IMG/VR virus record: IMGVR_UViG_3300010163_000016
Span: 1 to 64,000 of that record
Length of the DNA: 64,000 nt
Source: a virus
Lineage: Duplodnaviria; Caudoviricetes
Strand: one strand, 5' to 3'
The translations under genes and the position numbers were made by a program. The notes beneath the pieces were generated by a model. The model was given only the letters and a program-made list of their open reading frames with translations. It made no database searches and was not told the origin of the DNA. Position 1 is the stretch's first letter. Every line of letters begins with the position of its first letter. This document shows, piece by piece, positions 852 to 21,710 of the stretch.

Positions 852-1157
852 TTAAATCAGGTCTTCCACAAAAACCGCGTCATGGCGGTCTGCCGCGAGA
901 GCGTCTCTGAAAGGGATGCAGCTTTTGTTTGGAACGCATGAAAAGAGCATTCCAGCGTTCAGCCCATATGTGATAGGATAGCAAAACCCTTCCGCCAGGA
1001 GGGCTCCATTGACAACATCCATGACAAAGTCCTCGTCTATTTCATCAAAGTCAATTGTCATCCCCTGGCCAAATATCTCCGTGAGCAGCTCGCGCTCCTC
1101 TGACGTGTTTTCACAGATCACGCCGGAATGCTCGCTGAAAAACTGCCTCCAGTCCAT
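852..1157 (-). CDS. Small protein with DLI tail (C-[DE]-[TS]-x-EE family)
   Basis: RBS; GVICENTSEERE motif; ends VFVEDLI. Confidence 0.7.
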   Translation of the reverse strand: MDWRQFFSEHSGVICENTSEERELLTEIFGQGMTIDFDEIDEDFVMDVVNGALLAEGFCYPITYGLNAGMLFSCVPNKSCIPFRDALAADRHDAVFVEDLI

Positions 1158-1178
1158 CTCAAGGCTCCTTTCTTACTC

Positions 1179-1781
1179 CTAATGCTCACAAAATACCACC
1201 TGCTCTCCCCTTTTCAAAGACCAACAGCCTACATCCGTCAGCGCGCACTCCGTACAGTTGCCGCCGCATTCCAAGGCTTCCGGGCTGGCTGTCGTCGTCC
1301 CATCCCGATACCGCACATGGGCCTCGGGGAAAGAAAATGGGTTGACCATCGGAAGGCCAACCCATGCGCTGAAAACAATATGCAGATTGTCGGGGATCGC
1401 AGCGCCCTCCCTGACCAGCTCGTTGACAAATTCATACCGCTTGGTAAAGCAGAGGATCTCGCAGTGCTGCTGCCGGGTCGCCACCCCCACCATGGTCCTG
1501 AGATACTCTATATGGGGAATATCGCCGGACACATGGAAACGGAAGTAGCGCGACATCATAATAGCCGCCTCCACCTCCCGCCAATAGGTCTCGGGATCAT
1601 GGAGCAACACGTCCAGATTGTGCCGGTAAGCCGCCCTGACATTGGGGCGGAGCTGTTCCAGGCGTTTGGCATAGCACTTTCCTTGACAGGCGCACTCCCG
1701 GCAGGTGACGCCGGCAGGAAGAGACACGCTGGGGATCGCGCCCAGTTTGCTGTTGCCGGGGCTGATCTTTACGGTTGACAA
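1179..1781 (-). CDS. Gp88-like Cys-rich phage protein
   Basis: SLPAGVTCRECACQGKCYAK and FRFHVSGDI motifs, C-terminal Cys cluster. Confidence 0.6.
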   Translation of the reverse strand: MSTVKISPGNSKLGAIPSVSLPAGVTCRECACQGKCYAKRLEQLRPNVRAAYRHNLDVLLHDPETYWREVEAAIMMSRYFRFHVSGDIPHIEYLRTMVGVATRQQHCEILCFTKRYEFVNELVREGAAIPDNLHIVFSAWVGLPMVNPFSFPEAHVRYRDGTTTASPEALECGGNCTECALTDVGCWSLKRGEQVVFCEH

Positions 1782-1831
1782 GGGTTAGCCTCCTTTCTCA
1801 GATCGTCGATCTGTATTGCATCTGCTGCCAG

Positions 1832-2302
1832 TCAGCGCGTCGGCGGCACAAGTATGCCCAAGTCCAAAAGTTTGGTAATCGCTGCGAGAAATTTTTCCTG
1901 GATGATCCGGTCGTTATCGCATTGGATGTCCTCCTCACGGAAGAATTCGGTGAATTGATAGGAGCACATCCCGCCGTAGGCATCAATGGAAAAGCGGAAC
2001 CGCCCCGCAAACCTTGGGGCGTCCTCGTCGTGTATGCCGATCCAAAAGGAATTGTCCGTGCAGAAACGATGGTCTGCGGGCGTACCGGCACTTCCTGAGA
2101 TGCACCAGGCGCGGACAACATCGTTCCGCCAGAAGAGCGGCGGCTTGAGAAGGCTCCGGTTTCCTACTTTTAACTGACGGATTTTGGGAATTGTCAGATG
2201 ATATTTATTCTTTGGTGAGGATCTTTTCCCATTTTCCATACCTCTATCCTTCCGTATGACGCGCATAGTCACTCGACTTCTCTTGTGCAGATCGTCCAGC
2301 AA
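1832..2302 (-). CDS. Hypothetical protein (true start probably near 2237)
   Basis: ORF in packed minus-strand cluster. Confidence 0.55.
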   Translation of the reverse strand: MLDDLHKRSRVTMRVIRKDRGMENGKRSSPKNKYHLTIPKIRQLKVGNRSLLKPPLFWRNDVVRAWCISGSAGTPADHRFCTDNSFWIGIHDEDAPRFAGRFRFSIDAYGGMCSYQFTEFFREEDIQCDNDRIIQEKFLAAITKLLDLGILVPPTR

Positions 2303-2577
2303 TAGATCGTGGCAGGCTGCATTGTCATAGGGTCGAAACCCAGGTGGATCTCGTTATCGCCCTCCCAGGTCATATCCTCCTGCCAGAAATCAGAATCGAA
2401 TTCTTGCCGGATCTTGTCCGCTTCCTCGATCATCTTCTTTTTCGCGCCCTCATGGCAGGCATAAACGCCCACGATTTCCTCCCCTTCCACATCGGGAGTA
2501 TCCCAGGTGTGGAGCAATACATGAACGGTCATAGTCAATTTCCTCCGTTGTAGATCGTTTCGTTGTTGTCGATACAT
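2269..2577 (-). CDS. Hypothetical protein (true start probably MTMTVHV)
   Basis: ORF with internal GGAGG RBS. Confidence 0.55.
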   Translation of the reverse strand: MYRQQRNDLQRRKLTMTVHVLLHTWDTPDVEGEEIVGVYACHEGAKKKMIEEADKIRQEFDSDFWQEDMTWEGDNEIHLGFDPMTMQPATIYCWTICTREVE

Positions 2578-2609
2578 ATGGAATCATGAAAATTTGTGTT
2601 TTCCTTTGC

Positions 2610-2635
2610 AATATGATAAGATAAATTATCATATT
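2610..2635. promoter_or_regulatory. Perfect 10-bp inverted repeat, operator-like
   Basis: AATATGATAA-N6-TTATCATATT in an AT-rich gap between divergent genes. Confidence 0.45.
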
Positions 2636-2651
2636 CGAAAGGGGCGATGAT

Positions 2652-3119
2652 ATGGAACCCAGCAAGATGGATTTGCTCAGGATGTATTGGGATGAATGGA
2701 AGTTCAGACAAGAGGGGCTGTGGAAGCGGATCATCCAATTTTCCATTGTCATTTTCTTTACATCTACCATGCCGATCACCGCAAGGGCGCTCAATGTGGA
2801 AGTACCAAGCGTTTCCCTCGCTGTTTTCCCAGCTGTGGGCATTGTTCTCACAGTCTTTTTCTACTGGTTCTGTCTCTGTGAAGCCAGCCGGATCAATACC
2901 ATCGACGCTAAAATAAAAGGGATCATCTCAGACCTGTTTTCTCCAAAATATGCAAAAACAGACCTGCTGCCGTTTTCAAAGGAAACCGCTTTCCTTATGC
3001 CCCTCTTTAAGCACCGCATGGCGCTGTGGGTCCCGGCGCTGCTCTCCGCTCTGCATGTGTTTATTGCCGGTTTCATGCTGTATGTCATATCGACCGGTAA
3101 ATTGCCGCCCCTTGCATAA
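2652..3119 (+). CDS. Multi-pass membrane protein, moron-like, opposite to the cluster
   Basis: 155 aa with about three hydrophobic stretches; AT-rich upstream region. Confidence 0.65.
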   Translation: MEPSKMDLLRMYWDEWKFRQEGLWKRIIQFSIVIFFTSTMPITARALNVEVPSVSLAVFPAVGIVLTVFFYWFCLCEASRINTIDAKIKGIISDLFSPKYAKTDLLPFSKETAFLMPLFKHRMALWVPALLSALHVFIAGFMLYVISTGKLPPLA

Positions 3120-3738
3120 AAGGAGCTGCAGACTGGTATGGGCGCCGCGGAAGAAGTGAACGAATTCCTCGATTTGACGGAGGAACGACTCCCGCCCGAC
3201 CTGATATTCAGCGGCGAGGCGTTTCTCTTCGGCCCCGATCCAGTCCTTGTTCATGTGCCATTCCTCCGCTATTTTCGCACTTCGCTTCTGTGGTGTGCTG
3301 TTACGCCAAAGTCTCTAACGGTACTGGGCGAACCAGTCGGCAAACCCTGTTTCAAACACCGCAGTCGGTAGCTATCTCCAACCACATATGCCGAAACGCC
3401 ATTAACCCGTAAAGTCGTTGCCTGACCCGGACGAACCGGTATCAGGGGCTCTTGAAAACCCTGCGCATGATTTTCTTCTTTTTGACACTCCTTAGATGAT
3501 GGCTGCTTTTAAGCCTACATCCCACAGAGACGTTTGTGGGAAAACCCATTATTTTTGCCCGCGGTTGTCCCGCGTCTTTAGTCCGGCCTTGTGGCCTGAT
3601 GGTTCGGCTTTTGCAATGCTCCCCGGGCGGCGTTCTCCTCAAGAGATCCATCATTACGGACGCGGAAACCATGTCTGCGGAGCGGAGCATCAACCCACAG
3701 CATAGGTTGTGTGATATCGTACGCCCTGATTTTGATAA

Positions 3739-4149
3739 TCAGGTAGTCCGATAGATGAGTTTATACTCTTTCTCGCTACGACTGGTAGCTATTATGGTGG
3801 CTTTCTCCGCTACCATGGAACCCATATTACCCTCCTCCTGAATGGTGCTCCACTGGCATCCGCTATAGATGACCTTGCGGTCCAGCTTGCAGACCACCAG
3901 GGAGAAGTCCGCCAGGGTGGAAAAGTCGATACCGTCTCTGATAGCATCGTCTGTGGCGTAGAGCCTGGTCAGCTTTATAACATACTTGCTCTGACCATTG
4001 ATGGTAGCCACCGAGTCGCTCTCGCCGAAAGCCTCCGGCGCCTGACTGCTCTTGGTGGCCTTGGCGGTATAGCTCTGTACTACAGCTACTTTTTTGCCCT
4101 CCAGCTCCAGATAGATGTCGCGGCTGGTAGAAAACCCTATACACTTCAT
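3739..4149 (-). CDS. Orphan tail-tube-like protein (XkdM-like)
   Basis: DIYLELEGKKVAVVQSYTAK...LTRLY...YSGCQWSTIQEEG resembles contractile tail-tube proteins from recall. Confidence 0.55.
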   Translation of the reverse strand: MKCIGFSTSRDIYLELEGKKVAVVQSYTAKATKSSQAPEAFGESDSVATINGQSKYVIKLTRLYATDDAIRDGIDFSTLADFSLVVCKLDRKVIYSGCQWSTIQEEGNMGSMVAEKATIIATSRSEKEYKLIYRTT

Positions 4150-4178
4150 TGCCTCCTCCTCTTGAGCGAGAGTCCTGT

Positions 4179-4556
4179 TTATCCGTTTTGGGATTTAATA
4201 CTAACAGATACATCAAATCCACTCCGAATGGCTCTCTCAGCCTCCGCATTGAGTGCAGTTCGGACATCGTCACTGCCAGACCATCCGCGTGCCGAGCCGA
4301 TAACTTTCTTGATTTCTCGCTCTACAGTCTCCGTTACCTTGCGGTCGAAAATGCTGCTGATCTTGTCCTCGACATAGCTGCCCATAGCAGACCTGAAGTA
4401 GCTGTCAATTGTTTGCTGAGTTATTGTACGGATGTCCTCACCAGTTATCCTGGCAGCCTCGATCTGTTCTCGGATCGTCTCGCGGATGGTTAGGCTATTG
4501 ATCTCTTCCATCATAGCCCTTCGAATCAACGTGTTGATTTCTTGTTGAATATCCAT
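4179..4556 (-). CDS. Hypothetical helical protein
   Basis: 125-aa ORF. Confidence 0.6.
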   Translation of the reverse strand: MDIQQEINTLIRRAMMEEINSLTIRETIREQIEAARITGEDIRTITQQTIDSYFRSAMGSYVEDKISSIFDRKVTETVEREIKKVIGSARGWSGSDDVRTALNAEAERAIRSGFDVSVSIKSQNG

Positions 4557-4570
4557 TTTTCACTACCAAA

Positions 4571-4789
4571 CTAATCTTTTATAAATTTCTTACCGCACAA
4601 AGGACAATACTTTATTTCCACAATATCCTGCGTCAACAGGCCGATAGTTTGTGGTCCATCAGCAAAATCAAGTACCCTTACACGAAGCATTCCCTGCCGG
4701 TTCAGCGATATGTCGATGCCACTGTACTCGATGGTTTGGTTGATTGGGTTAAACTGGTTTGTATTTATTTCGCAATATGGACAACTCAT
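4571..4789 (-). CDS. Small Zn-binding protein
   Basis: CPYC at the N-terminus and CPLC near the C-terminus. Confidence 0.6.
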   Translation of the reverse strand: MSCPYCEINTNQFNPINQTIEYSGIDISLNRQGMLRVRVLDFADGPQTIGLLTQDIVEIKYCPLCGKKFIKD

Positions 4790-4804
4790 AAACTCACCAC
4801 CAAA

Positions 4805-5631: not shown

Positions 5632-5635
5632 AAAA

Positions 5636-5971: not shown

Positions 5972-6350
5972 GGCTGCTGATGTCGACAGCCTTTTGGAAG
6001 GGGTCGTTCAGATGAAAAGTTGGCAGAGTACGTGTGTCAGGGTTCCACTGTTTTTTTCCTTCTTCCGTCAACTCGAATCTACCAAGCACACCGCTGTTGT
6101 ATAGGACAATTCGATACCACCAGTCATCTCCAGACCCAACCTTCCCACAAATATCACAGTAGCTACCCATACGGACCTTGGTACTAGGGATAAAACCATG
6201 TACCCGATTCACTTCAACGCCAGGGTATTCAAATACGCACAGCTTGAACACATGCTTATGATCGGCCTTCTTCGGAGAACGTTTAGATGATTTCTTGCGA
6301 TGCCTGCACCGCTCATCAACCAACTCATTACAAACGTTCATTTTGCTCAT
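5928..6350 (-). CDS. Hypothetical protein
   Basis: 140-aa ORF, CDIC motif; start overlaps upstream stop. Confidence 0.55.
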   Translation of the reverse strand: MSKMNVCNELVDERCRHRKKSSKRSPKKADHKHVFKLCVFEYPGVEVNRVHGFIPSTKVRMGSYCDICGKVGSGDDWWYRIVLYNSGVLGRFELTEEGKKQWNPDTRTLPTFHLNDPFQKAVDISSLEKAKGYAYEQEAT

Positions 6351-6553
6351 AAGATATCTTCACCTACAGGTGCTCGTCTATTCCAGGCAGTTATAGCTTC
6401 CTCTTCGGTTTGAAACTCGCCCCAGTCCTGGCAACAATGCAATGATGGGCAGCCGCCACGGTTGTAACCGCAGGTGACGGACCAGTAGCCATGATGCCAT
6501 TGGGTTCCCGCATCGCCACATCCACAGAATGGGCAAGGTTTTAATGGAGTCAT
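6347..6553 (-). CDS. Lar-family restriction alleviation-like protein
   Basis: LKPCPFCG...C...EEEAITAWNRR signature; start moved to MTPLKP. Confidence 0.7.
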   Translation of the reverse strand: MTPLKPCPFCGCGDAGTQWHHGYWSVTCGYNRGGCPSLHCCQDWGEFQTEEEAITAWNRRAPVGEDIL

Positions 6554-6682
6554 CTCAGATACTCCTTGTAGATGGTGATCCCGAAAACGCGATAGGCGAT
6601 ATAATCGCAATGCTCCATGTAGATACAGCTTGACGGCAAAACCCGCTGCAAAAAGTCAAAAAGTTTCTTTCCGATGTCCATT

Positions 6683-8097: not shown

Positions 8098-8343
8098 CTA
8101 TAGTGCGTCAATAATTTCTTGCATTTCGCAGATCACATTTTCAAGAGTATCCTTACTGTAACTTCGCAGGCTCACATTATCCGGGATTGCTACCACCGCA
8201 TTGTCTGGGAACGCTGACTTCACACAATTGAATATGCTCTGCATTTCAGCAAGCGAGACTTCTTTCAGGGGGAACCTTAACACAATTGCTTCTGTCAGAC
8301 GCGGATGAATTGTTTCAACCTGTGGGATCAAATCTATATCCAT
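8098..8343 (-). CDS. Hypothetical protein
   Basis: 81-aa ORF, packed. Confidence 0.55.
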   Translation of the reverse strand: MDIDLIPQVETIHPRLTEAIVLRFPLKEVSLAEMQSIFNCVKSAFPDNAVVAIPDNVSLRSYSKDTLENVICEMQEIIDAL

Positions 8344-10667: not shown

Positions 10668-10925
10668 TCAAATCAGATCTTCAATGTAAACCGATGGTTG
10701 GTCAACGATCTCCTCGATACAATAAGCATTCCAGACCCAGCCGAGACCGTCATTTTCAGATCGATCTTCTTCCATATCAACTCGTGCCCAGAAGCATTTC
10801 CAGACAGTCATAACGGTTCCCAGCCAGTGGTCCATCCGGCCATCAGTATTTTGGCAGCATCGACTATTCCAGTGATCTACAATGCGCACGCGGTCTCCCG
10901 GCCGCAATATTGAAATATCAACCAT
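10668..10925 (-). CDS. SH3/KOW-like small protein with DLI tail
   Basis: LRPGDRVRIV; ends VYIEDLI. Confidence 0.7.
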   Translation of the reverse strand: MVDISILRPGDRVRIVDHWNSRCCQNTDGRMDHWLGTVMTVWKCFWARVDMEEDRSENDGLGWVWNAYCIEEIVDQPSVYIEDLI

Positions 10926-10949
10926 TATCGTTTCCTCCTTACAGCCATA

Positions 10950-10987
10950 AGGAAATCGCCCGCCGTTTGCTCGGCGGGCGATTTCCT
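10950..10987. terminator. 16-bp stem hairpin (terminator or processing site)
   Basis: AGGAAATCGCCCGCCG-N6-CGGCGGGCGATTTCCT. Confidence 0.55.
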
Positions 10988-11000
10988 ATGATGTATTTCC

Positions 11001-11546
11001 TTATTCGTTGATGATATGGATCTGGCACGCTTTCATAGCGGACAGAGCGTTGGCGTGGCTCTCAGACGTAACGCCGGCGCAGCAGGCAGCATCCACACAA
11101 ATGGGCACATCCGGCAAAAATGTTTTGATCGTCATGGCGTTGGAGATCACACAGATGTCCGTGCAGAGGCCAACCAACTGAATTTCCTCGATGGGAATAT
11201 CCATGTGAAGCGCAGAGAGCGCCTGTGCCAGAGAACGGCACCCGAACGTATTCTTTGTCAGATACGTCACATTGGAAAATGCGGCGTTCTTGGCGGAGAG
11301 TATGGCCTGCACGGTATGATCGATTTCCCATCCATAGGTCTCCTCCACACAGTGGATGACCGGCAGCAGCCGCCCCTCCTGGGTGGACAAATACTCCTTA
11401 TCGTGAGTGTCCTGGGTGACGAAAATATCCCCTTCCCATTGGCTGATTTTTTCCATTACCTTTGGAACAATAGCCTCGGCAGCAGGCGTTCCAAGGGCGC
11501 CGGATATAAAATCATTCTGCATATCCACTACGATCAATATTTTCAT
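11001..11546 (-). CDS. pncA: Nicotinamidase / isochorismatase-family cysteine hydrolase
   Basis: VVDMQNDF, QDTH, HC, KNTFG and GLCTDICV motifs. Confidence 0.85.
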   Translation of the reverse strand: MKILIVVDMQNDFISGALGTPAAEAIVPKVMEKISQWEGDIFVTQDTHDKEYLSTQEGRLLPVIHCVEETYGWEIDHTVQAILSAKNAAFSNVTYLTKNTFGCRSLAQALSALHMDIPIEEIQLVGLCTDICVISNAMTIKTFLPDVPICVDAACCAGVTSESHANALSAMKACQIHIINE

Positions 11547-11658
11547 ATAATGCCTCCTGATGATACGTTTGTTCTGATATCCTAGCACAAAAACAGTACG
11601 TTTGCAATCCTAAATTCCTGTTGGCTCATTCTGAGCACAGCTTTGCAGATTGTTTCCT

Positions 11659-11892
11659 TTAGATCAAATCGTCGACAGCGGGCAGATCTGCATCCCATGG
11701 GATGAGTTGGCTCAGCGGCCACCAGAATATTTCGTTTTCCAACCTTGCCCCTGGCCCTTCAATGTGGGTGATCTGTAGAGGGCACCTCGCAAATGCGGCG
11801 TTCCAAGATGTTGCACAAATACCATAATGCATTGAACCGCCGGGATAAGGCCGCAGGCAAACCAGATCGCCTACCCGGAATTGTCCATTCAT
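11659..11892 (-). CDS. SH3/KOW-like small protein with DLI tail
   Basis: FRVGDLVCLR; ends PAVDDLI. Confidence 0.7.
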   Translation of the reverse strand: MNGQFRVGDLVCLRPYPGGSMHYGICATSWNAAFARCPLQITHIEGPGARLENEIFWWPLSQLIPWDADLPAVDDLI

Positions 11893-12275
11893 ATCAGATC
11901 CTCCAGTTCAACGCCAGTTTCATAACATTCAGCCGCTGGGATCTTCTGAACCATATTTTCTTGTAGAAAGGGCTCATACTGGATGATTGACTGACAAGTG
12001 CAGGTCTTGCCGTTTTCAAAATACGCCTTCCAGCGGTCTTCAATATCTTCTCCATCACCGGTCAGTTCAAAGAAACAGCCTGGATACTGCACGGACAGCT
12101 GCAGCAGATCGGTTTCCCACTCATACCATTTTGCGTACCCGCTGGCATAGACCCTACTCCCTACAGATGCTGTGTCATTAAAAACACAGAGGTTGTCCAG
12201 GTCCTTCAGAAGCTGATCCCGCATGCCGGACATAACATGATTAACCGTCAAATCAAATGTCGTATAGTAGCCCAT
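11889..12275 (-). CDS. Hypothetical protein with DLI tail
   Basis: MGYYT...AKWYEWE...GEDIED; ends VELEDLI. Confidence 0.7.
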   Translation of the reverse strand: MGYYTTFDLTVNHVMSGMRDQLLKDLDNLCVFNDTASVGSRVYASGYAKWYEWETDLLQLSVQYPGCFFELTGDGEDIEDRWKAYFENGKTCTCQSIIQYEPFLQENMVQKIPAAECYETGVELEDLI

Positions 12276-12287
12276 ATTCTTTCTCCC

Positions 12288-12632
12288 TTAGATCAAATCG
12301 TCGATGTTTGGCAGGAGCGCGTCGTCCTTCATCAGCCACTCCTGGAAGGTATACCATGTGTGCTCGTTGACACCGCTGGCATCGGACAGCGTCCCATTTT
12401 CCAGGAGCGTATGCGCCATATCCCGGTTGATCCTGGCGATACAATGGGGAAATTTCTCTCCAAGAGCCCAGCGGAAGCCGGCTGTTTCAGGCATCAGGGC
12501 AAATTGCGGAACGAAACCAAACTTCCCCAGCATGGAATATCCGGCGGCGTGCAGCATGTTAGCCAACTCCAAGCACTCCTCCTGTGTATCGCAGAGGATA
12601 CACTCCCCTCTTTTCAGCAGCATATATCCCAC
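12288..12632 (-). CDS. Small protein with DLI tail (C-[DE]-[TS]-x-EE family)
   Basis: ILCDTQEECLE; ends PNIDDLI. Confidence 0.7.
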   Translation of the reverse strand: MGYMLLKRGECILCDTQEECLELANMLHAAGYSMLGKFGFVPQFALMPETAGFRWALGEKFPHCIARINRDMAHTLLENGTLSDASGVNEHTWYTFQEWLMKDDALLPNIDDLI

Positions 12633-12639
12633 TCCTTTT

Positions 12640-12813
12640 TCAAATCAGCTCCAAAACAATAGGGTAAGGCCATCCGGGTTGCGTCTGGGCCATAACGGCA
12701 TTCCCTCCCGCCACATTGCCTTTGAGAGCAACACCATGGCCTGGACCATTAGGGTCATGACATTTGAAAATCTGGAAGCCGCCGCCCCGGCGGAAAAATT
12801 CATGGATATCCAT
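12640..12813 (-). CDS. 57-aa ORF below the track cutoff
   Basis: AGGAG RBS; MDIHEFFRRGGG...PIVLELI fills the gap between genes. Confidence 0.4.
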   Translation of the reverse strand: MDIHEFFRRGGGFQIFKCHDPNGPGHGVALKGNVAGGNAVMAQTQPGWPYPIVLELI

Positions 12814-12822
12814 ATCGCACTC

Positions 12823-13134
12823 CTATATTAAATCGGAAACGTCCACGAAGGCAGCATGGACCTCCGCCGGGAACAGGTCTGCCGCAGCGATGTGCCTATA
12901 GCCAGTGATTTCCCTGCCGTTTCCATATGCATTGACCCCACGCGACGTCAAAAACAAATATTGCCAGTAACTGCTTCCATCATAGGATCGTTCCCAATTC
13001 GTCCGCGGCACCCCATAGATGGTTTCCATCAGGGGGGCGACGATCAGCGTTTCTTCCTGAGAGTCACACACGACAAAGCTGTAGTCGCCACACCCCTGGA
13101 CGCCGATCGCTTCAATAAGCTGTTCCCTTGTCAA
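12823..13134 (-). CDS. Small protein with DLI tail (C-[DE]-[TS]-x-EE family)
   Basis: FVVCDSQEETL; ends VDVSDLI. Confidence 0.7.
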   Translation of the reverse strand: MTREQLIEAIGVQGCGDYSFVVCDSQEETLIVAPLMETIYGVPRTNWERSYDGSSYWQYLFLTSRGVNAYGNGREITGYRHIAAADLFPAEVHAAFVDVSDLI

Positions 13135-13751
13135 AGCACATCCTCCAAAAGCTCGCAGCGGATATGGAGGCTGACGCTCTGTCCCTGACGCGCTAGCCGC
13201 CGCAGGGAGTTGGCGACGTGATCCGCGTCAAAGGCGCCGCGAAACCGGAGGCTGAATTCCTCCAGGGAGAGCGGCACAGTTTCCTGGGCAGGCCGCGGAT
13301 CCTCCTGGGGCTGGGGCGCTGGTTCCTGTCCGGGATGGAAGAAATTCATCAGGAGTATTCGCTGCCCGTTCGTCATACGGCTGCCGCAGGTGAAAAGGCC
13401 GGAAAGGTCGCAGTCCGCCACAGAGCGGCGGAAGGTGCTGATGGAGACCCCAAAAGCCTCGGCAATAACGCTCATGGTGGCTCCGTATGTATGGGCCAGG
13501 AAAGCGGTATACTGCCGCCGCAGATCGGCGGGCATATCCCGGAATTCCTGGAAGGTCATCGGTTCGCTGAGTTTGTAGCTTTTTACTTCTCCGTTCATTC
13601 TCTCCAGCTCCTTCTTGGTTTTATGGTCGGACGGCAGGGACACATAGGCGGTCCTGCTGCCGCTTCTTCTGCGGCGGGCGCTGTGTCCGGCGGACTTTTT
13701 CTCCCGGATATCGCCGTAGAATACGGACTTGATCTCTCTGGCGTCCATCAT
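13131..13751 (-). CDS. Basic helix-turn-helix protein directly downstream of retron ncRNA unit 3
   Basis: GAAAGGAGG RBS, start MMDAREIK; Arg/Lys-rich N-terminus; MSVIAEAFGVSISTFRRSV HTH-like segment. Confidence 0.7.
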   Translation of the reverse strand: MMDAREIKSVFYGDIREKKSAGHSARRRRSGSRTAYVSLPSDHKTKKELERMNGEVKSYKLSEPMTFQEFRDMPADLRRQYTAFLAHTYGATMSVIAEAFGVSISTFRRSVADCDLSGLFTCGSRMTNGQRILLMNFFHPGQEPAPQPQEDPRPAQETVPLSLEEFSLRFRGAFDADHVANSLRRLARQGQSVSLHIRCELLEDVL

Positions 13752-13791
13752 GCGGGGTGTGTGCCCCTCCTTTCGTAGGTGGATTGATGTT

Positions 13792-13970
13792 GTCTGCGAT
13801 CCATGAGGCCTGTCTTCCTGCCGGGCTGGGCGCCAGCCGGGCAGTGAAGACAGAGCCGAGTGCACGGGCCTGCGCCCGCTTGGCGTTAGCAATTTTTGTC
13901 TGGCTGCGTTGTACGTCCGCGCTGCGCTGGACGTTTCTCCGTGATGCGGAAGAAGATTTTCATCGCAGAC
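13792..13970 (-). ncRNA. Retron-like msr-msd ncRNA, unit 3 (179 nt)
   Basis: 9-bp arms GUCUGCGAU/AUCGCAGAC with opposing Gs (13961, 13801); SL1 abutting SL2 ACGUCC-A-GCG-CAG-CGC-GGACGU (13913-13934); long msd hairpin about 13807-13858. Confidence 0.75.
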
Positions 13971-14344: not shown

Positions 14345-15496
14345 TTATGCGGCGATATCCTGCCGCAGCATTTCCTTGACATCCCCGCCGAACTGCTGCC
14401 CGTAGAGCTCCAACACAGCCTTCATCCAGGCCGGTTCCACCATGGCGGCATAGGAGATGTTTCCCTGGAGCCGGTTCAATTCACCAACAGGTGTGGGAAT
14501 ATGGTTTTGCCGGTCGGTGAGATAATTGAAGATCCAGGCGCGCAGATCCCGCTTCCGCCGGTGGCCCAGCGTGATCTCGTTGTCTTTATTCACCATAAGC
14601 CCCAGCATCCAGTTCCTGCCGGAGCGGGACCCATAGTGGGTCTTCTCCGGCTTGATGCGGAACGGCGCATGGTTCTTTTCCAGGACCCGGTCGATGAGAG
14701 CGACGATCTTCCTGTAGTCAAAATCATACCGGGAACTGATGGTGATATCGTCGGCATAGCGGGTGTAGATATAGCGGTTCTTTTCGTAGTCCCGCAGTGT
14801 GTTGCTCAGCTCGTAGTCAATGGGGATCATGACGGCGTTGGTGAGCAGAGGAGAGATCGGTGTCCCCTGCGGCAGCCCCCCATTCAGGAAACAGAGGCTG
14901 AGGGCCTTTTCCAAAGCTGCTTTCCCCCGCGGGTAGCGGACCACCTCGCTGAAAGGGAAGATCTGGCTGAACTGCGCCATGGTAAACTCCAGGGTAGTGC
15001 TGCCGAAGAAGTTGGAGAAATCTGTTTTCAAATACCATCGGGAGTCGTTAGCCTGGTGCCGCCTGGCGGCGTCCACCGTGCATCTGCCGGTCACGTAGGC
15101 GTAGGCAGCCGTGTGATGGAGTACACGGAAATCCGATTCAAAAATCGATTTCAATATCCGCAGAGCCAGATCCAGATCAGCATGCGGCTGGTCAATGGGG
15201 CGTTTCCCTTTGCCGTTTTTCTTGGGGATCTCATAGTGGCTGTAGAGAGACGCGCGCTCCGCCTGAAACAGCGGCTCAAACTGCTGATTAAACTGCTCCA
15301 GACGGCGGATCAAAGCAGCCACGTCCAGCTGCCGGTACAGCTTATCGCTGGGCCAACTGATCAAATAGGTGCGGGTGGCGCCCTTTACATTTTTCCAAGG
15401 GGGGGCCGGGACGGCCCGGTCCAGATCTCCAAAAATCAGCTCGTCCAGAGAGAACTGATGGGATGCAGGCATCTGCTTGACCGTTACATATGGCAT
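14345..15496 (-). CDS. Retron-type reverse transcriptase
   Basis: IPKKNGKGKRPI, AARRH (region X-like), LKTDFSNFF, LPQGTPISPLLTN, YTRYADD, MLGL at the VTG position; no maturase, HNH or nitrilase domain. Confidence 0.9.
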   Translation of the reverse strand: MPYVTVKQMPASHQFSLDELIFGDLDRAVPAPPWKNVKGATRTYLISWPSDKLYRQLDVAALIRRLEQFNQQFEPLFQAERASLYSHYEIPKKNGKGKRPIDQPHADLDLALRILKSIFESDFRVLHHTAAYAYVTGRCTVDAARRHQANDSRWYLKTDFSNFFGSTTLEFTMAQFSQIFPFSEVVRYPRGKAALEKALSLCFLNGGLPQGTPISPLLTNAVMIPIDYELSNTLRDYEKNRYIYTRYADDITISSRYDFDYRKIVALIDRVLEKNHAPFRIKPEKTHYGSRSGRNWMLGLMVNKDNEITLGHRRKRDLRAWIFNYLTDRQNHIPTPVGELNRLQGNISYAAMVEPAWMKAVLELYGQQFGGDVKEMLRQDIAA

Positions 15497-15827: not shown

Positions 15828-16505
15828 TCAGAACGCATCCAGGGAGGGCAGGAATGCGTCCGTCTGAATGGTACGGCGGAAGGTCTTCCCTTCCGATTTG
15901 ACGAAGTTCATGAAATTGCTCACCGCCAGGGAGCAGATCAGATAGACTGTCGTGCAGACGGAGAGCGCCGTGTTGCAGGCGGTGTGGGGCGTTTCCGCGG
16001 CGGCCTGTTCGTCCGTGAAGTCCATAGTGCCGATGAAATTTCGAACGCTCAGGCTGTCGTGCCAGTCAGCCAGATAATGCTGGGCGTCGGTGAGGCTGAT
16101 GCGGACGTCGCTCATGACTGCAATGGATGGGTTCAGCTTATGCTGCTTAGCAATCGCTTTTCGGGTGGCGATACTATCCACGCAGAGGAATACGCACCCG
16201 GAGAGCGGCTGATCCTCATACCGTTCCGGGACAAGCCGGATCTGTTCCCCAATCCCGCTGTTGATCTCCGTCAGGATCTCCCCCAGCGCGTCCACCTTCT
16301 TTTTCCCGACATCCTTCTCCCGGAACATCTGATTGGCGATGTTGTGGGGCTCCACCATGTCGTCGTCGTACAGGACAAAATCCGTCAGGCCGGCATGGGC
16401 CAGCATGACGGCAATGGTGCTTCCAACCGCCCCGCATCCGATGATATGGATGCGGCCCCGGACCATGGACGGATGAAAGAATCCTTCCATTTTAATGAGA
16501 TCCAT
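15828..16505 (-). CDS. ThiF/E1-like adenylyltransferase (Ubl-activating enzyme)
   Basis: IHIIGCGAVGS, YDDDMVEPHNIANQ, CVDS; candidate catalytic Cys in TPHTACN; no Zn CxxC pairs. Confidence 0.9.
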   Translation of the reverse strand: MDLIKMEGFFHPSMVRGRIHIIGCGAVGSTIAVMLAHAGLTDFVLYDDDMVEPHNIANQMFREKDVGKKKVDALGEILTEINSGIGEQIRLVPERYEDQPLSGCVFLCVDSIATRKAIAKQHKLNPSIAVMSDVRISLTDAQHYLADWHDSLSVRNFIGTMDFTDEQAAAETPHTACNTALSVCTTVYLICSLAVSNFMNFVKSEGKTFRRTIQTDAFLPSLDAF

Positions 16506-16507
16506 AT

Positions 16508-17377
16508 TTAAATCCCCCTTCCCGCGCAGGACACCCAGCGTCCTGCCTCGTCATAGCAGCCATATGGTTCGTCGTCCGCATCATATCGGTCGCCATAAGG
16601 GTCCTCGTCGTAAAGATCGTTGGCCCATTTCTTTTGGGAAGCTCCTGTCGTGGGGCTGGCGGTCTTGCCCGCAGTCCCAGCTGTGGAGGCGGGCGGCGTA
16701 TAGCTGCCGGGGTAGGAAGTCCGCCCGCCGCCGGAGGTGGTCGTCTGATATGTCTGGACAACCATTTCCTGTGCGGACTTCAGGAACGGCTCCGCCTGGA
16801 AAGTTTCATCCCCGATGTAGACGTCAACGTCAGCGGTCTCATACATGACGCCGAACTTGTTGTCATAGAGCCGGATGAACAGCTTGCCCGGCTTGTTCAT
16901 GATAAAGAAGAGATAGAAATCCCCGGGCTGCAGCATGTTCGTCAGATCCCGCTGGAGATCGTCGTCGGTGGCGCTGGAAAACGTATCCATATTGACATGG
17001 CTGTGGCCGTGGAAGCGGATCTTGCGGAGCGTTTCTGTGGGGAACCGGTCCAGCCACGCGCCGTGCTTGATCTCATCCGTTGTGATATTGGCCCCGGTGA
17101 CACGCTGTGGGTAGACCATGACATCCTCCAGCAGGAACCGGTCATCCGCCTCCGGATCCCGGCAGCAAACGCCCTGCCAGCCGACTTCGCTGGTGAAGTG
17201 CTGAATGAGCAGCTGCATCTTGAGCCAGGCCATCGGGGCGACAACCACTTTTACCCGCCTGGGCGCGCCGGCGGGAAGCGGCATTCCGCTCAGGACGCGG
17301 GGATCGAACTTTCCCGCCAGGAGGCGGGCGGCCTTCAGGTAATCAATGGCCTCCTGGTGCAATGTAAAGTTTTTCAT
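16508..17377 (-). CDS. JAB/MPN metallopeptidase (Ubl processing/deconjugation)
   Basis: SEVGW Glu and HGHSHVNMDTFSSATDD JAMM motif; low-complexity C-terminal tail. Confidence 0.85.
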   Translation of the reverse strand: MKNFTLHQEAIDYLKAARLLAGKFDPRVLSGMPLPAGAPRRVKVVVAPMAWLKMQLLIQHFTSEVGWQGVCCRDPEADDRFLLEDVMVYPQRVTGANITTDEIKHGAWLDRFPTETLRKIRFHGHSHVNMDTFSSATDDDLQRDLTNMLQPGDFYLFFIMNKPGKLFIRLYDNKFGVMYETADVDVYIGDETFQAEPFLKSAQEMVVQTYQTTTSGGGRTSYPGSYTPPASTAGTAGKTASPTTGASQKKWANDLYDEDPYGDRYDADDEPYGCYDEAGRWVSCAGRGI

Positions 17378-17400
17378 ACGCTTTCTCCTTCTCCTTCTGC

Positions 17401-18831
17401 TCACAGCGTTTCCAAATACTCCCGGCAGGTCATTGCGGACCCATCGCGCAGCAACAGACACTTCTGCTGACTGGAGCATAACCAATTCGAGAACTTGCTG
17501 ATGGCGCTGTCGTGGATGGTGATCTGGCTGGTGGCCGCAACCGTTACTGCCACGGCGCCGGCGTAGTCTCCGGCAATCAGGGCTTCGTTCAGGTTGTCAG
17601 CGTGGGAACCCCAGCAGCCGTACCCCATCAGATGGGGATTCATGAGATAGTCCTTCAGCTCCGGAATCAGAGGTCTGTCCTCATGGATGGTGATCCCGAT
17701 CTGCTCATCCGTATAGCGGAGGTCGAACGCCGCCGCCATCCGAATTCGCACCGTCCGCTCCAAAAAGATTTCCTTCAAAAGCTGCTGGAACTTTCTTTTG
17801 GGAATATCATGGTTTTCGCAGCCATCATAGAGATAGCCGCTCAGCGTTTTGATATAGCTTTCAGCCTCCTGATCGTCCCAATAGGTCATCTCGCTCTTGA
17901 CCCAATAGGAAAATCCGCTTTGGGTCTGTCCATCGAACACCAGAGCCTTATTCGTCAGAAAGTATGTCAACAGCTCCTGATCCGCGCTTTCGTCCTGTCC
18001 GGCGGCATAGCGCAGCCCGTACAGCTCGATCATCTTCCTGTCGCGTTGGGCGGTCGTTGCCCGAATTCTGTCCTGGTACGTCCGCAGATCTCTTGTCAGA
18101 TTCTCGACGGTCTTTTCAACCGTCTTGAGCCGCTGTTCCCTCGCCCTGCCCGTGAACTTAGCCAGCTCCCGGCGGATCGTGGCGCCGCGGAAATCGTGGC
18201 CGGCCTCAAACCGGCTCATGATTTCCCGGTAAGTGTCCAGAGACACGGCTTTGGCCGAAGACAGGCAGCGTATCATTGCCTCCTCATCCTCCGTGAAGGG
18301 ATGCTCCAAGAAGAAGTTTTTGAAATAGCTGCGCATGAAGACCTGAATGATATGCCATTTCCTGGCGTTCATGCTGTCCGTGAAGATGACAGTATTGGCA
18401 ATATCATCCTGGATAAAAGTCAGGATATACGAAGGAGTTTTCCCATCATGGAACCGGCTGTAGATCCGCTCATGGAACTCATGCCCCGGGACGCCGGTTT
18501 TGCGGATGGCGTCCGCCACGTGAGCCATAGTTTCATGATCGGCAGAAATGCTCACTACAGTGACGGTGTTCCGGGCGGAGACGTCCGCCAGATCCAGCAG
18601 GCCGGACGCCGGGTTCTTTCCTTTGCCGGAAGGAAGCTGGTCCACCTGCCGCAGGCGGAGATATGCCTCCTCCCCGGCGGGGAGACGGGAAGGCAGCAGC
18701 GCACGCATGGTCGCCAGCCAGCTCACGTCCTCGTTATAAGTATCACAGTGGATATGGGGAAAAATTTCATCGGCAACGTCTGAGGCGAGACGCACCTGAT
18801 CTTTTGTGATCGTGCCAGCGATCATGTTCAC
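17401..18831 (-). CDS. Large protein with coiled coil and C-terminal E2-like domain
   Basis: NPHLMGYGCWG resembles the prokaryotic E2 PH...C motif; coiled coil around REQRLKTVEK; sits between Ubl and JAB. Confidence 0.6.
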   Translation of the reverse strand: MNMIAGTITKDQVRLASDVADEIFPHIHCDTYNEDVSWLATMRALLPSRLPAGEEAYLRLRQVDQLPSGKGKNPASGLLDLADVSARNTVTVVSISADHETMAHVADAIRKTGVPGHEFHERIYSRFHDGKTPSYILTFIQDDIANTVIFTDSMNARKWHIIQVFMRSYFKNFFLEHPFTEDEEAMIRCLSSAKAVSLDTYREIMSRFEAGHDFRGATIRRELAKFTGRAREQRLKTVEKTVENLTRDLRTYQDRIRATTAQRDRKMIELYGLRYAAGQDESADQELLTYFLTNKALVFDGQTQSGFSYWVKSEMTYWDDQEAESYIKTLSGYLYDGCENHDIPKRKFQQLLKEIFLERTVRIRMAAAFDLRYTDEQIGITIHEDRPLIPELKDYLMNPHLMGYGCWGSHADNLNEALIAGDYAGAVAVTVAATSQITIHDSAISKFSNWLCSSQQKCLLLRDGSAMTCREYLETL

Positions 18832-18860
18832 TACTCCCTTTCAAAATGGATTTTCATTGC

Positions 18861-18903
18861 GCCGTGGAGAGAGGTTTTCTTTTTTTGAACCCCTCTCCAC
18901 GGC
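18861..18903. terminator. Intergenic hairpin between Ubl and E2-like genes
   Basis: GCCGTGGAGAG / CTCTCCACGGC 11-bp stem. Confidence 0.45.
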
Positions 18904-18909
18904 CATCGG

Positions 18910-19167
18910 TTACTTCCGGCCGCCGTTGGCAGGCTTGACGCCGCTGAGGATCAGGGTGGTATCGGCCGTGATGTCGGGGTGGGCGGAAGCGATCTCGTCA
19001 AAGCTCTTATCGGCTTCGTCGGCGGTCAGGGGGATGCCGTTGATCTGGAGATTGTAGTTGCCCAGGGTAACGCCGTTGTCGCGGATGAACGCGCGGGGCG
19101 TGACGCTGCCGTCCACACACTTGGGGTCGATGCGGTCCAGATTGTTCTTGTACATGACCTGATACAT
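18910..19167 (-). CDS. Ubiquitin-like (beta-grasp) protein ending NGG-RK
   Basis: 85 aa; LQINGIPL and terminal strand LILSGVKPANGG followed by two extra residues; adjacent to E2, JAB and E1. Confidence 0.7.
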   Translation of the reverse strand: MYQVMYKNNLDRIDPKCVDGSVTPRAFIRDNGVTLGNYNLQINGIPLTADEADKSFDEIASAHPDITADTTLILSGVKPANGGRK

Positions 19168-19209
19168 AATTTTGTTCTCCTTTTTTGATATGTAAATTCG
19201 TTAATGATG

Positions 19210-19256
19210 TGTGATGTTCCTGATGAGGCGGAGACCGGCGCGGCGCGCCGGTCTCC
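19210..19256 (-). other. Orphan copy of the ncRNA unit 1 3-prime arm preceded by a 12-bp hairpin
   Basis: TGTGATGTTCCTGAT at 19210-19224 is identical to 15527-15541; hairpin at 19230-19256. Confidence 0.6.
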
Positions 19257-19268
19257 TGGCGGGGATTG

Positions 19269-19670
19269 TTACATGACTACGTCGATGAGGCCGGAGAGGA
19301 ACTCCTGCTCCTCGGCGATCTGGGTGAGAGCGGGCTGGAACTGCTCCTCCACCTTGCGGAGGTTCAGGATGGCGGCGCCGAACTTCTCAGCCACATACTT
19401 CTTCACGTCCTCGTCGGTGCCCTTGCCGCTGATGTCCACCGTCAGCATGGCCTTCTTGGGCGCGGTGTTGGTGTCGGCGCTGAAGGTGGCGCCGAAGGTG
19501 TTCAGAGAGCCGGTCTTGCCCGCGGCAACCCGGAAATACTCCTGCTTCTTGCCGTCCACTTCCTTGGTGAGCGCCAGAGCCTCGCTCTTGCCGGCCTGCA
19601 GCTTCTTCAGGTCCTCCATCGTGACCTCAGTGGTTACTACCAGGGAATTACCGATTGTTTTGATCTTCAT
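19269..19670 (-). CDS. Lys-rich 133-aa protein, first gene of the Ubl operon
   Basis: Strong AAGGAG RBS, marked G/C-ending codon bias. Confidence 0.8.
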   Translation of the reverse strand: MKIKTIGNSLVVTTEVTMEDLKKLQAGKSEALALTKEVDGKKQEYFRVAAGKTGSLNTFGATFSADTNTAPKKAMLTVDISGKGTDEDVKKYVAEKFGAAILNLRKVEEQFQPALTQIAEEQEFLSGLIDVVM

Positions 19671-19759
19671 GACTATTTTCTCCTTTTCAAAAATGTTGGT
19701 CCCATTCAGTATGATCCGCCATCGCCGCGGGGAGGCAGGGGCCGTGATGACATATAAAC

Positions 19760-19785
19760 AGCGCCGCCCACGAAAGGGCGGCGCT
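19760..19785. terminator. 10-bp GC hairpin upstream of the Ubl operon
   Basis: AGCGCCGCCC-ACGAAA-GGGCGGCGCT. Confidence 0.5.
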
Positions 19786-20080
19786 AAATGAGGTCGTCTA
19801 AATTTGGAATATACGGCACACCATATTCCAGCCAGGTGTATGTGTGGGAATAATTGTGCTGTGCATAGTCTTCAAAGCCGTAGCCGACATATCTGGTATC
19901 GTGATACCGGTTATAGATCGGCCATTCCGGTATGCGTCTACGGTAGTGGGGCGGACCGGCGGAAATCCTGTGCGTATCACATTCTTCTTGAAATGCCAAA
20001 AACGTTTCCACCGAAGGAAAGAAAACCAGACACCTGGAAGACGCCAGGAACGTCTCCCAGTCAAATGGCTGTTTTATCAT
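19784..20080 (-). CDS. Small protein with DLI tail
   Basis: Ends PNLDDLI. Confidence 0.7.
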   Translation of the reverse strand: MIKQPFDWETFLASSRCLVFFPSVETFLAFQEECDTHRISAGPPHYRRRIPEWPIYNRYHDTRYVGYGFEDYAQHNYSHTYTWLEYGVPYIPNLDDLI

Positions 20081-20091
20081 CGATTCCCTCC

Positions 20092-20346
20092 TCAGATCAA
20101 ATCGTCCAGATCAGGCGGCACATCATTGTGAAGAGCGAGCTCTTCCAATTCATAATTCCAGCCGTAACCCTCCTCTACCCGCCCAGCGCAGTCATGTAAA
20201 CGGGGATGATATTCGTCATGCTGAACAGCATATCGACCATCCCTCAGTACACAGAACACGGTTCCAACCATCCCTATCTGGTGGGGCATTGTCCCATTCC
20301 ATTCCTTGTTTGCAACACAGATCACCCGGTCGCCGATTGAAAACAT
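20092..20346 (-). CDS. SH3/KOW-like small protein with DLI tail
   Basis: FSIGDRVICV, LHDCAG...GYGW; ends PDLDDLI. Confidence 0.7.
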   Translation of the reverse strand: MFSIGDRVICVANKEWNGTMPHQIGMVGTVFCVLRDGRYAVQHDEYHPRLHDCAGRVEEGYGWNYELEELALHNDVPPDLDDLI

Positions 20347-20366
20347 ACTTATCCCCCTTTCTCGTG

Positions 20367-20624
20367 TCAAATCAAGCCGGAAACATCCGGCGGGTCATCT
20401 TTCTCTGCAAGGCCGGCAAACATATCATCTGTCCACCAATACCCAGCTTCTTCAAGGACATACTTACCGCAGGTTGCTGATCGAATCGTTACGATCTGTC
20501 CTTTCCAACGAATCATTGGCTCTACAACCGCATCTCCGATATCACAACCATCCATATAATAGACCTTGCGCAAGACAAGGTCATCCCGCACCAGGACGCG
20601 GTCGCCGGGTGCATACTTCGCCAT
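20367..20624 (-). CDS. SH3/KOW-like small protein, variant tail
   Basis: YAPGDRVLVR; ends PDVSGLI. Confidence 0.7.
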   Translation of the reverse strand: MAKYAPGDRVLVRDDLVLRKVYYMDGCDIGDAVVEPMIRWKGQIVTIRSATCGKYVLEEAGYWWTDDMFAGLAEKDDPPDVSGLI

Positions 20625-20640
20625 AGGAGCCTTCCTTTCC

Positions 20641-20865
20641 TTAAATCAAATCATCAACGTTGGGCAGGTCGTTTCTGTTGGGAACCTGGATAATGGTCCA
20701 CACGCCGTGTTTGATATAGTCGGTGATCTCTTGTTCGGAATAGTTTTCATAGCGTTTTCCGGTTGTCATACTGACTAGATAACTGCTGCTGCCGTCTATT
20801 ACATATTCGTAACGAGGTCTGGAAGAGCCATAGTATTCAATAACGGCACGGCGCGGGATGTTCAT
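20641..20865 (-). CDS. Small protein with DLI tail
   Basis: Ends PNVDDLI. Confidence 0.65.
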   Translation of the reverse strand: MNIPRRAVIEYYGSSRPRYEYVIDGSSSYLVSMTTGKRYENYSEQEITDYIKHGVWTIIQVPNRNDLPNVDDLI

Positions 20866-21062
20866 GGCGCCAGCTCCTCATCTTCTTGGGACGCCAAGAT
20901 CCTGCGGATGGCTTTCTGCTGTTTGCTTGTCAATGTTGCGAAATCCAGCTCAAAATCGTCGCAGCCCCTCTTGGGGTATGGCAATCCGTCGTCGCAATCC
21001 CAGGAATATCTATACCGGCAATGCTCGCATACAGTCACGATAGACTCCTCCTTTCCATGTCT

Positions 21063-21347
21063 CTATATCAGGTCGCTCAGGTCGATCCATGGGATTTCTT
21101 CTACAGGGGCGACCATATCGTCATCTACATACCACCCATAGCCCCTCTCGCAGTTGCCGTTGCAGCTATGAAAATTGGACGTGTCGCATTCCACTTCCCA
21201 GCAGACGCCAAAGCGGCTGGGCCCTCCCAGCATTCCCATGCTGTCGACCACGGTGCCACAGATCCCAGTGCGGAGGACTGGATTACCCTCCGGATAATCC
21301 ACCAGCAGGCAGACGCGGTCGCCTTTTTTATACTGGAATTCGTCCAT
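21063..21347 (-). CDS. SH3/KOW-like small protein with DLI tail
   Basis: YKKGDRVCLL, FHSCNG...GYGW; ends IDLSDLI. Confidence 0.7.
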   Translation of the reverse strand: MDEFQYKKGDRVCLLVDYPEGNPVLRTGICGTVVDSMGMLGGPSRFGVCWEVECDTSNFHSCNGNCERGYGWYVDDDMVAPVEEIPWIDLSDLI

Positions 21348-21362
21348 GGTTTCCTCCTTCTG

Positions 21363-21710
21363 TTAAATCAAGTCGTCAACATCAATACCAATGTCGGACC
21401 CGATTAGGTGAGCAATTTCGTCATACAGGACTGCTGATGATGGCCGGGCAGCCGAAAATTCAATCCCGTCTGAAAACGAAGAGCACATGACAGTGGGCCA
21501 ATGACAGCTTTCTTTTATATCGGCTTCCGGGTCTGCAAGCATCTTTTCAGACCAGCCGGAACCCCCATGGGGAATTCCATGATCCAGCAAAAATTGAATG
21601 ACAGTGGCGCGGTCGCTGCCATTATCACAGTAGACGGAGATACGGCCTGCGCAGAACGCATCCAGAAATTCATCCAAGCTCACGGCAATACGCCTCCCTC
21701 TCCTCCTCAC
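21363..21710 (-). CDS. Small protein with DLI tail
   Basis: ISVYCDNGSDR; ends IDVDDLI. Confidence 0.65.
   Translation of the reverse strand: MRRRGRRIAVSLDEFLDAFCAGRISVYCDNGSDRATVIQFLLDHGIPHGGSGWSEKMLADPEADIKESCHWPTVMCSSFSDGIEFSAARPSSAVLYDEIAHLIGSDIGIDVDDLI

Follow-up and report, generated by a model that had tools for sequence, protein, structure and literature searches.

We analysed the first 64 kb (hereafter the window) of IMG/VR virus record IMGVR_UViG_3300010163_000016, an 83,771-bp record of a tailed phage (Caudoviricetes) that is ~66% complete by the CheckV estimate. The minus strand of the window carries arrays of small genes whose products end in the same tripeptide, D-L-I, and these arrays flank a block that encodes a retron-type reverse transcriptase (RT) and a predicted ubiquitin-like (Ubl) conjugation module. 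An earlier note, made from the sequence alone, had listed eleven such endings together with two variants, S-G-L-I and L-E-L-I, and had placed ten of the eleven in two clusters bracketing the block; every one of them is present at the coordinates that it gave, and the two clusters span 10668-13134 and 19784-21710. In the first cluster, D-L-I ends an 85-amino-acid (aa) SH3-like protein (10668-10925, minus strand, as are all the tailed genes; VYIEDLI), a 77-aa SH3-like protein (11659-11892; PAVDDLI), a 128-aa member of phrog_6306 with an added tail (11889-12275; VELEDLI), a 114-aa protein (12288-12632; PNIDDLI), and a 103-aa protein (12823-13134; VDVSDLI). The second cluster holds a 98-aa protein (19784-20080; PNLDDLI), an SH3-like protein (20092-20370; PDLDDLI) whose true start is likely at 20346, giving 84 aa, a 74-aa protein (20641-20865; PNVDDLI), a 94-aa SH3-like protein of phrog_22041 (21063-21347; IDLSDLI), and a 115-aa protein (21363-21710; IDVDDLI). 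The eleventh, a 101-aa protein ending VFVEDLI, is encoded at 852-1157.

A twelfth D-L-I ending was found in a gene at 545-837 that is split between two frames at a run of six G residues. The 550-837 frame ends SMFLI, while the 3' portion of the gene, open reading frame (ORF) 545-658, ends VDVSDLI. The frameshift at GGGGGG could be an assembly error, or the gene could be a phase-variable or pseudogenised copy. Five looser variants accompany these endings: an 85-aa SH3-like protein (20367-20624) ends PDVSGLI, a 57-aa protein (12640-12813) ends IVLELI, a 253-aa protein with a weak HTH_23 match (13131-13892) ends ELLEDVL, an 87-aa protein (6347-6610) ends GEDIL, and the product of 8098-8343 ends EIIDAL.

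D-L-I is the most frequent C-terminal tripeptide of the genome, found 11 times against 4 for the runner-up. From the internal tripeptide frequency, only 0.017 such endings would be expected by chance among the 68 minus-strand genes, and none occurs among the 67 plus-strand genes, which serve structural and replication functions. The enrichment check that the earlier note had proposed thus comes out in its favour within this genome, with 12 endings (the split gene included) against ~0.02 expected. The note had also drawn attention to the codons, and its account was correct: the Leu codons CTG, TTG, CTC, and TTA, the Ile codons ATT, ATC, and ATA, and all three stop codons (TAA, TGA, and TAG) are in use in the tails, so that selection acts on the peptide. 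A cause at the DNA level, such as a repeat or a ribosome-binding site inside the tail, was considered and rejected, since the codons are not the same and most ribosome-binding sites are located beyond the stop codon; GGAGG-type sites precede most minus-strand genes. The positional consensus is [PV]-[DN]-[VLI]-[DSE]-D-L-I-COOH. A search of IMG/VR for DNA encoding P-N-x-D-D-L-I followed by a stop gave 27 matches, about the chance level as estimated by hand, and these were mostly spurious ORFs.

The same architecture recurs in related phages. MT835544.1, a GenBank fragment of a human-faecal phage, encodes at least 10 SH3-like paralogues, all of which share the tail E-C-x-C-x-S-L-L, along with homologues of the RT, the ThiF/E1-like adenylating enzyme (E1; 45% identity), the JAB/JAMM peptidase (JAB), a 476-aa E2-like protein, and a 133-aa conserved protein (p133) of the block. 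With an alignment of the window E1 and the MT835544.1 E1 as the query, at least 198 IMG/VR contigs with a related E1 were found; the contigs listed range from ~15 to 150 kb and are mostly 70-150 kb. We retrieved 80 of these 198 loci, with ±10 kb around each (loci are designated L with a number). The gene order p133-(Ubl)-E2-like-JAB-E1-RT is kept in 80/80 loci, and in 38 of them at least four small ORFs on the same strand within ±10 kb end in [LIV][LI]. Over all 80 loci, such ends were found on 17% of same-strand small ORFs versus 6% of opposite-strand ones, and the tailed small ORFs flank the block on both sides. Co-occurrence of the tails with the Ubl operon, which the earlier note had asked about, takes the form of a link by position, seen for many relatives of this phage, between the tails and the Ubl/retron block.

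The tails of related phages fall into classes that differ between lineages. L064 and L070 share the DL[LI] class with the window, in the form I-x-T-[IL]-D-[DG]-L-[LIV]. In L039 the class is L-[ED]-[ED]-[IV]-L, carried by ~14 to 20 genes depending on ORF calling; the GEDIL end of the window gene at 6347-6610 resembles the E[IV]L ends of this locus, and homologues of the 253-aa window protein at 13131-13892 were found only in L039, L064, and L070. The class of L045 and L046 is Φ-D-Φ-x-x-L-L (in L045, it is carried by ~21 of the genes called, and LL ends 30 raw ORFs), that of L073 is G-[VI]-x-F-x-S-L-L, and that of L075 to L110 is N-E-C-x-C-x-S-L-L. Loci that lack strictly terminal tails often have the motif close to the end instead, as in L065, L067, and L068, where it reads F-E-D-E-L-M-x-L-L-G-G and is followed by 0 to 4 more residues; there, the motif occurs in 6.9% of C-terminal versus 1.5% of internal 14-mers. 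Across a large phage clade, the retron-Ubl block is bordered by arrays whose tails are specific to each genome; this is a new result, and in full-text literature searches we found neither such tails nor this operon pairing described.

Which tail a protein carries follows the genome rather than the gene family. In two families of SH3-like proteins (clusters 0 and 4; cluster 0, to which the window protein at 20367 belongs, is the largest tail-bearing family of the clade) and in phrog_6306, the members from each lineage carry its local tail. This is shown most clearly by two orthologues, L073:18128-18424 and L075:17727-18029, with identities of ~86% in protein and ~90% in DNA as far as the motif …WTDDMF and wholly different sequences past it, ending …LRFESLL (FxSLL) and …NECYCESLL (ECxCxSLL), respectively. 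Both are located at the margin of a 2.3-kb block of 83% nucleotide identity (L073 16039-18383 and L075 15644-17982) that comprises a gene for a 693/709-aa protein and one SH3-like gene; the remainder of the two loci is far more diverged. The block stops ~40 nucleotides ahead of the stop codon of the SH3-like gene, a pattern that points to a recent exchange with its junction at the tail boundary. Among 27 phages with 99.6% identical E1 proteins, the 281 SLL-tailed ORFs represent 179 distinct sequences, and within orthologue groups of these phages 28% of body columns vary versus 10% of tail columns, the variable tail columns being mostly the free "x" positions of the motif. As read from these alignments, the architecture combines a head that changes fast with a handle that is constrained and specific to the genome.

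The earlier note had described the tailed proteins of the window as unrelated small early proteins, a description that needs amending in part. Five of them, encoded at 10668, 11659, 20092, 20367, and 21063, share an SH3-like domain with the signature GDRV…G[YL]GW, while the others have no significant similarity to one another. By BLAST clustering, the 12 tailed proteins of this phage form 11 clusters, the 14 of L064 form 12, the 21 of L045 form 15, and the 14 of L039 form 11. Their status as early genes is probable from strand and gene content. Searches of Pfam, PHROGs, NCBIfam, and PADLOC with the tailed proteins gave no informative family, and none of 57 representatives of tailed families was matched in Pfam. 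Close relatives of single tailed proteins in IMG/VR, JGI metagenomes, and GTDB genomes were either absent or limited to one irrelevant Phycisphaerales match.

An AlphaFold2 model of the protein encoded at 20092 is a compact SH3-like beta-barrel, with a predicted local distance difference test score (pLDDT) of 92-97 for residues 1-72 and 89.7 overall, followed by 12 disordered terminal residues (pLDDT 52-70); in the model, the tail is an exposed, flexible extension. Foldseek matched the barrel to Xrn1-SH3, KOW, CAP-Gly, PsaE, and Mind-bomb (Mib) repeat domains (TM-scores of 0.53-0.63) with a probability of 1.0, yet with E values of only ~0.01. A profile built from the five SH3-like proteins found 198 matches among 1.84 billion protein representatives. 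Several of these metagenomic homologues also have [DES]DLI ends (P0004, 7, 9, 11, 23, 46, 58, 77, 101, 118, and 129), and further ones have related acidic-amphipathic tails, for example, …DDIFAVIGG. The phrog_6306 protein encoded at 11889 offers a complementary view: its family is found across Streptomyces, crAss-like, and jumbo phages, and most homologues of other phages align to residues 1-108/113 only, so that the tail of the window protein is an addition.

The block between the two clusters lies entirely on the minus strand. It comprises an RT (14345-15496) whose best profiles are retron St85 and type II-A, the E1 (15828-16505; ThiF match at 2.4e-21), the JAB (16508-17485), the 476-aa E2-like protein (17401-18831), an 85-aa Ubl ending …PANGG-RK (18910-19167), and p133 (19269-19670), which is always first in the operon. 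The JAB has an E…HxH…S..D motif, in the form E…HSH…S..D invariant in 38 homologues, and then a disordered acidic C-terminal region. In the 476-aa protein, modelled with confidence (pLDDT 91.5), an N-terminal alpha/beta domain and a long coiled coil precede a C-terminal RWD/UBC-like domain, which has a weak RWD match (Z 6.7-7.1, VIA-wide) and in which H400 and C406 are invariant. A Foldseek search with this protein gave no match at an E value of ≤0.001, and its model-based assignment as an E2 is weak. An ESM Atlas search with p133 returned only Bacillota clusters without names. With its ThiF domain, JAMM motif, small-residue-ended Ubl, and Cys-bearing E2-like domain, the block fits an E1/JAB/Ubl conjugation module. 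The Ubls of the clade mostly end …V-K-A-D-N-A(A), not Gly-Gly, and that of the window is divergent.

Bil (BilABCD), PRTRC, and type-6 Ubl operons have a similar composition of a ThiF/E1, a JAMM peptidase, a small Ubl, and an E2/RWD-like protein, and the RT of the block is of the retron class; the block of the window is phage borne, is joined to that RT, and has tail-tagged arrays on its flanks, features that the papers searched describe for none of these systems. Two further features of the block concern the C termini of its own proteins: the E1 proteins of the clade (L031-L110 and the window) end in a conserved …Φ-x-Φ-D-A-F-COOH, and a D/E-rich …P-Y-G motif lies in the disordered region at the end of the JAB proteins. 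E1 homologues also occur in crAss-like and Flavobacterium FpV4-type phages. We considered whether the RT could diversify the small genes in the manner of a diversity-generating retroelement and rejected this, because no template/variable-repeat similarity was found between the noncoding DNA flanking the RT and the small genes.

The record has a siphovirus-type gene content, including terminase, portal, tape-measure pieces, and integrase-like genes. Its portal is 31-37% identical to portals of a human-faecal phage and of Alicyclobacillus, Bacillus, and Brevibacillus phages. A 558-aa protein (32626-34302, plus strand) matches Pfam RdRP (PF05183) and phrog_8308, as expected of a YonO-like single-subunit RNA polymerase, and a 317-aa repressor-like protein (24809-25762, minus strand) has the N-terminal core-binding domain of MrpR; a YonO-like RNA polymerase and an MrpR-like repressor domain are features of SPβ-type phages. 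The gene content suggests that the host, for the window phage and for the clade of its uncultured relatives, is probably a member of the Bacillota. No GenBank phage gave a megablast match to the window. Two other genes lie close to tailed ones. An isochorismatase/nicotinamidase-like gene (11001-11588, minus strand) sits within the array, and in MT835544.1 its homologue adjoins NAD synthase, NAMPT-like, and phosphoribosyltransferase genes (L030 12495-17745); together, these look like an NAD-salvage set of the counter-defence type. A 200-aa protein with a Pfam GP88 domain (1179-1781, minus strand) has homologues in MT835544.1 and several related loci.

With moderate confidence, we take the tail for a modular handle through which the proteins dock to one shared partner. 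According to this model, D-L-I would be the version used by this phage of an acidic amphipathic C-terminal short linear motif with the general form Φ-x-x-[LIV]-[LI]-COOH, which the clade would attach to arrays of small, fast-evolving, mostly unrelated proteins encoded to the left and right of the block. The handle would be constant and the head variable, and each small protein would act as an interchangeable adaptor or client of the shared partner. A single reader would serve the tails, and it would differ between genomes. Because of the constant synteny, the Ubl machinery is the obvious candidate reader, and we tentatively place it at the head of the candidates, whether the contact is made by the 476-aa E2-like protein or by the Ubl through an interaction similar to that of a SUMO-interacting motif (SIM) or an LC3-interacting region (LIR). 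In the one comparison made, between CxCxSLL and FxSLL phages, identity falls most steeply in the operon for the Ubl, from 74% to 39%; the corresponding change for E1 is from 94% to 66%.

It is conceivable, if doubtful, that the arrays are fast-evolving, exchangeable substrate receptors or clients of a phage-encoded, retron-linked ubiquitin-like ligase. Each head would bind its own target, from the host or a rival phage, and the handle would plug into the E2-like protein or the Ubl, following an F-box-like logic. Ubiquitin-ligase docking boxes (F-box, SOCS/BC-box, and H-box) offer an analogy, in that they likewise may be described as a short constant motif joined to a variable target-binding domain. 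SIMs and LIR/Atg8-interacting motifs (AIMs) bind beta-grasp proteins through a hydrophobic core ([VIL]x[VIL][VIL] or [WFY]xx[LIV]) with acidic flanks, and some are C-terminal; they may be compared with the tails, although the spacing in the tails is different. As a pattern only, the tails Φ-[DSE]-D-L-I resemble the SIM/LIR form Θ-x-x-Γ, except that the residue at the aromatic position is aliphatic. The likeness to docking boxes and Ubl-interacting motifs is one of architecture and gene neighbourhood only. D-L-I-COOH also matches the pattern of class III PDZ ligands, [DE]-x-Φ-COOH, again at the level of the pattern only, and Pfam scans of ~30 window proteins gave no match to a PDZ domain.

Several results weigh against a dedicated handle read by the neighbouring machinery. 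No reader was identified, and no gene specific to array-bearing lineages was found within ±10 kb. L064 and L070 share the DL[LI] tail class, and when their operon proteins were ranked by identity to those of the window, none was the closest relative, so that there is no signal of covariation. In 42/80 loci the operon is kept with no more than two strictly terminal tails. Several of these 42 carry near-terminal ΦΦG(G) versions. In some lineages the tail motif is followed by 1-8 extra residues, which means that a free carboxylate is not always required. Recombination at a conserved motif, and not selection for tails that match, may explain the breakpoint at WTDDMF. Finally, the Xanthomonas phage PhiXhv-15 (L111, PV764602.1 84889-88768), a cultured and distant jumbo phage, encodes a homologue of E1 (35% identity) after two other proteins, one of 892 aa and one of 141 aa that ends …KASGG, and this E1/Ubl module is present without a tail-tagged array.

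Other explanations of the tails have to be set beside the docking handle. Non-polar C termini are classic protease tags, and the tail could be a degron for a protease of the host, either AAA+ or tail-specific (ClpXP, ClpCP, FtsH, Lon, or Ctp), which would make the whole set short-lived and lead to its removal together. The motif is exactly C-terminal, with two terminal aliphatic residues in many lineages, is exposed and disordered in the model, and is confined to a nonstructural gene block, all of which suit a degron. Acidic residues near the end weaken ClpX recognition of ssrA-type tags, though, and the ssrA-type pattern, an …L-A-A-like end free of neighbouring acidic residues, was not found: counting the terminal residue as 0, the tails have Asp at -2, next to the terminal residues, in 11/13 cases and D, S, or E at -3. 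The conserved part, at 7-8 residues and specific to each genome, also exceeds what such proteases need, and some lineages have ΦΦGG and then extra residues; we regard a degron as rather unlikely. A motif directed at a host hub, or mimicking one of its ligands, is in our view unlikely. Such a tail would tether the protein to the beta sliding clamp, to the partners of single-stranded DNA-binding protein (SSB) tails, or to RNA polymerase, or would block that hub. This idea draws on the acidic-amphipathic ΦxxΦΦ form at a free C terminus, as in clamp-binding motifs and PCNA-interacting peptide (PIP)-type motifs, on a DUF2815-like SSB in an unrelated viral contig that ends DDDDDLI, and on the tails …ESFLFGD and …SELMTLFGM of related lineages, which we take to recall T4 SLDFLF. 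Both bacterial sliding-clamp motifs and the gp45-binding tails of T4 gp43, gp33, and gp55 are common hydrophobic peptides, often C-terminal, that plug into a hub. The beta-clamp-binding motif is defined as Qφx[L/M][F/L] or Qφx[L/M]x[F/L] (PMC11139829), whereas position 1 of that motif (tail position -5) is D in 5/13 tails, N in 3/13, and another residue in 5/13, but never Q, and position 4, which needs Leu or Met, is Asp in the same 11/13 tails. No sliding-clamp gene was found in the record. Nor do the tails show the SSB-tail pattern D-D-D-[IL]-P-F, since they end D-L-I without Pro-Phe; the genuine SSB in locus L042 ends DDDELPF. The earlier note had likened the tails to clamp-binding or SSB tails, and by the sequence definitions of both this analogy fails. 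Were the target a conserved hub, tail classes would not be expected to differ so much between related phages, and it is hard to explain why 12 to ~20 different proteins should be aimed at one hub. A 187-aa phage SSB-like protein encoded on unrelated viral contigs (L018 979-1542 and L021 12688-13251) ends …DDLGDLDDDDDLI.

The small proteins might also read each other. CAP-Gly domains bind EEY/F-COOH ends, and the SH3/CAP-Gly-like proteins of the arrays could bind the tails of one another and of the remaining tailed proteins, giving hetero-oligomers or auto-inhibition. The largest tailed families are SH3-like and are present in every array-bearing lineage, the SH3-like domain and the tail are nearly always found together in SLL lineages, and CAP-Gly domains are among the best structural matches (2hl5_C, 3e2u_D, 3tq7_P, and 1whj; TM-scores of 0.51-0.60). 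These fold matches are weak, however, as noted above, and are common to many SH3-like folds, and the monomer model shows no docking of the tail onto the domain that bears it, leaving such a network decidedly unlikely. Encapsulin cargo is marked by a short C-terminal tag shared by unrelated small proteins, and phage capsids and encapsulin shells share the HK97 fold, so the tail could be a loading signal that docks cargo inside the capsid for injection into the next host. The tails and encapsulin cargo-loading peptides do agree in being short, conserved C-terminal tags, attached by a flexible linker to unrelated proteins, that have (or, for the tails, would have) one reader. They differ in consensus, with no similarity between the tails and known loading peptides, and in the genome-specific distribution of the tag over arrays of ~12 to 20 fast-evolving phage proteins next to a Ubl/retron block. 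Moreover, the tailed genes are on the other strand and in another block than the structural genes, among repressor-like, NAD-salvage-type, and retron genes, and no structural-side gene has a tail; we consider virion loading very unlikely. It is most improbable that the tails lack a common function and are left over from common descent or from recombination between the 3' ends of array genes. The conserved WTDDMF motif is indeed a site of recombination, and most tailed genes in SLL lineages are paralogues, but tails are also found on families without detectable kinship, the tail codons of the window share no DNA similarity, the tails are more conserved than the bodies, and there are several independent tail classes, each specific to a lineage.

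In being runs of numerous small phage genes with poor conservation, the arrays resemble the host-takeover module of SPO1 and similar early clusters, in which no common C-terminal tag is known. If one partner does read the docking handle, a single peptide would open a whole class of phage "dark-matter" proteins, amounting to ~12 to 20 proteins per genome within ±10 kb and to hundreds of variants over at least 198 contigs, some of them human-faecal. It would also provide a first functional lead for the retron-ubiquitin-like module that the arrays flank. Genome-specific modular tags on fast-evolving heads would be the signature of an arms-race toolkit.

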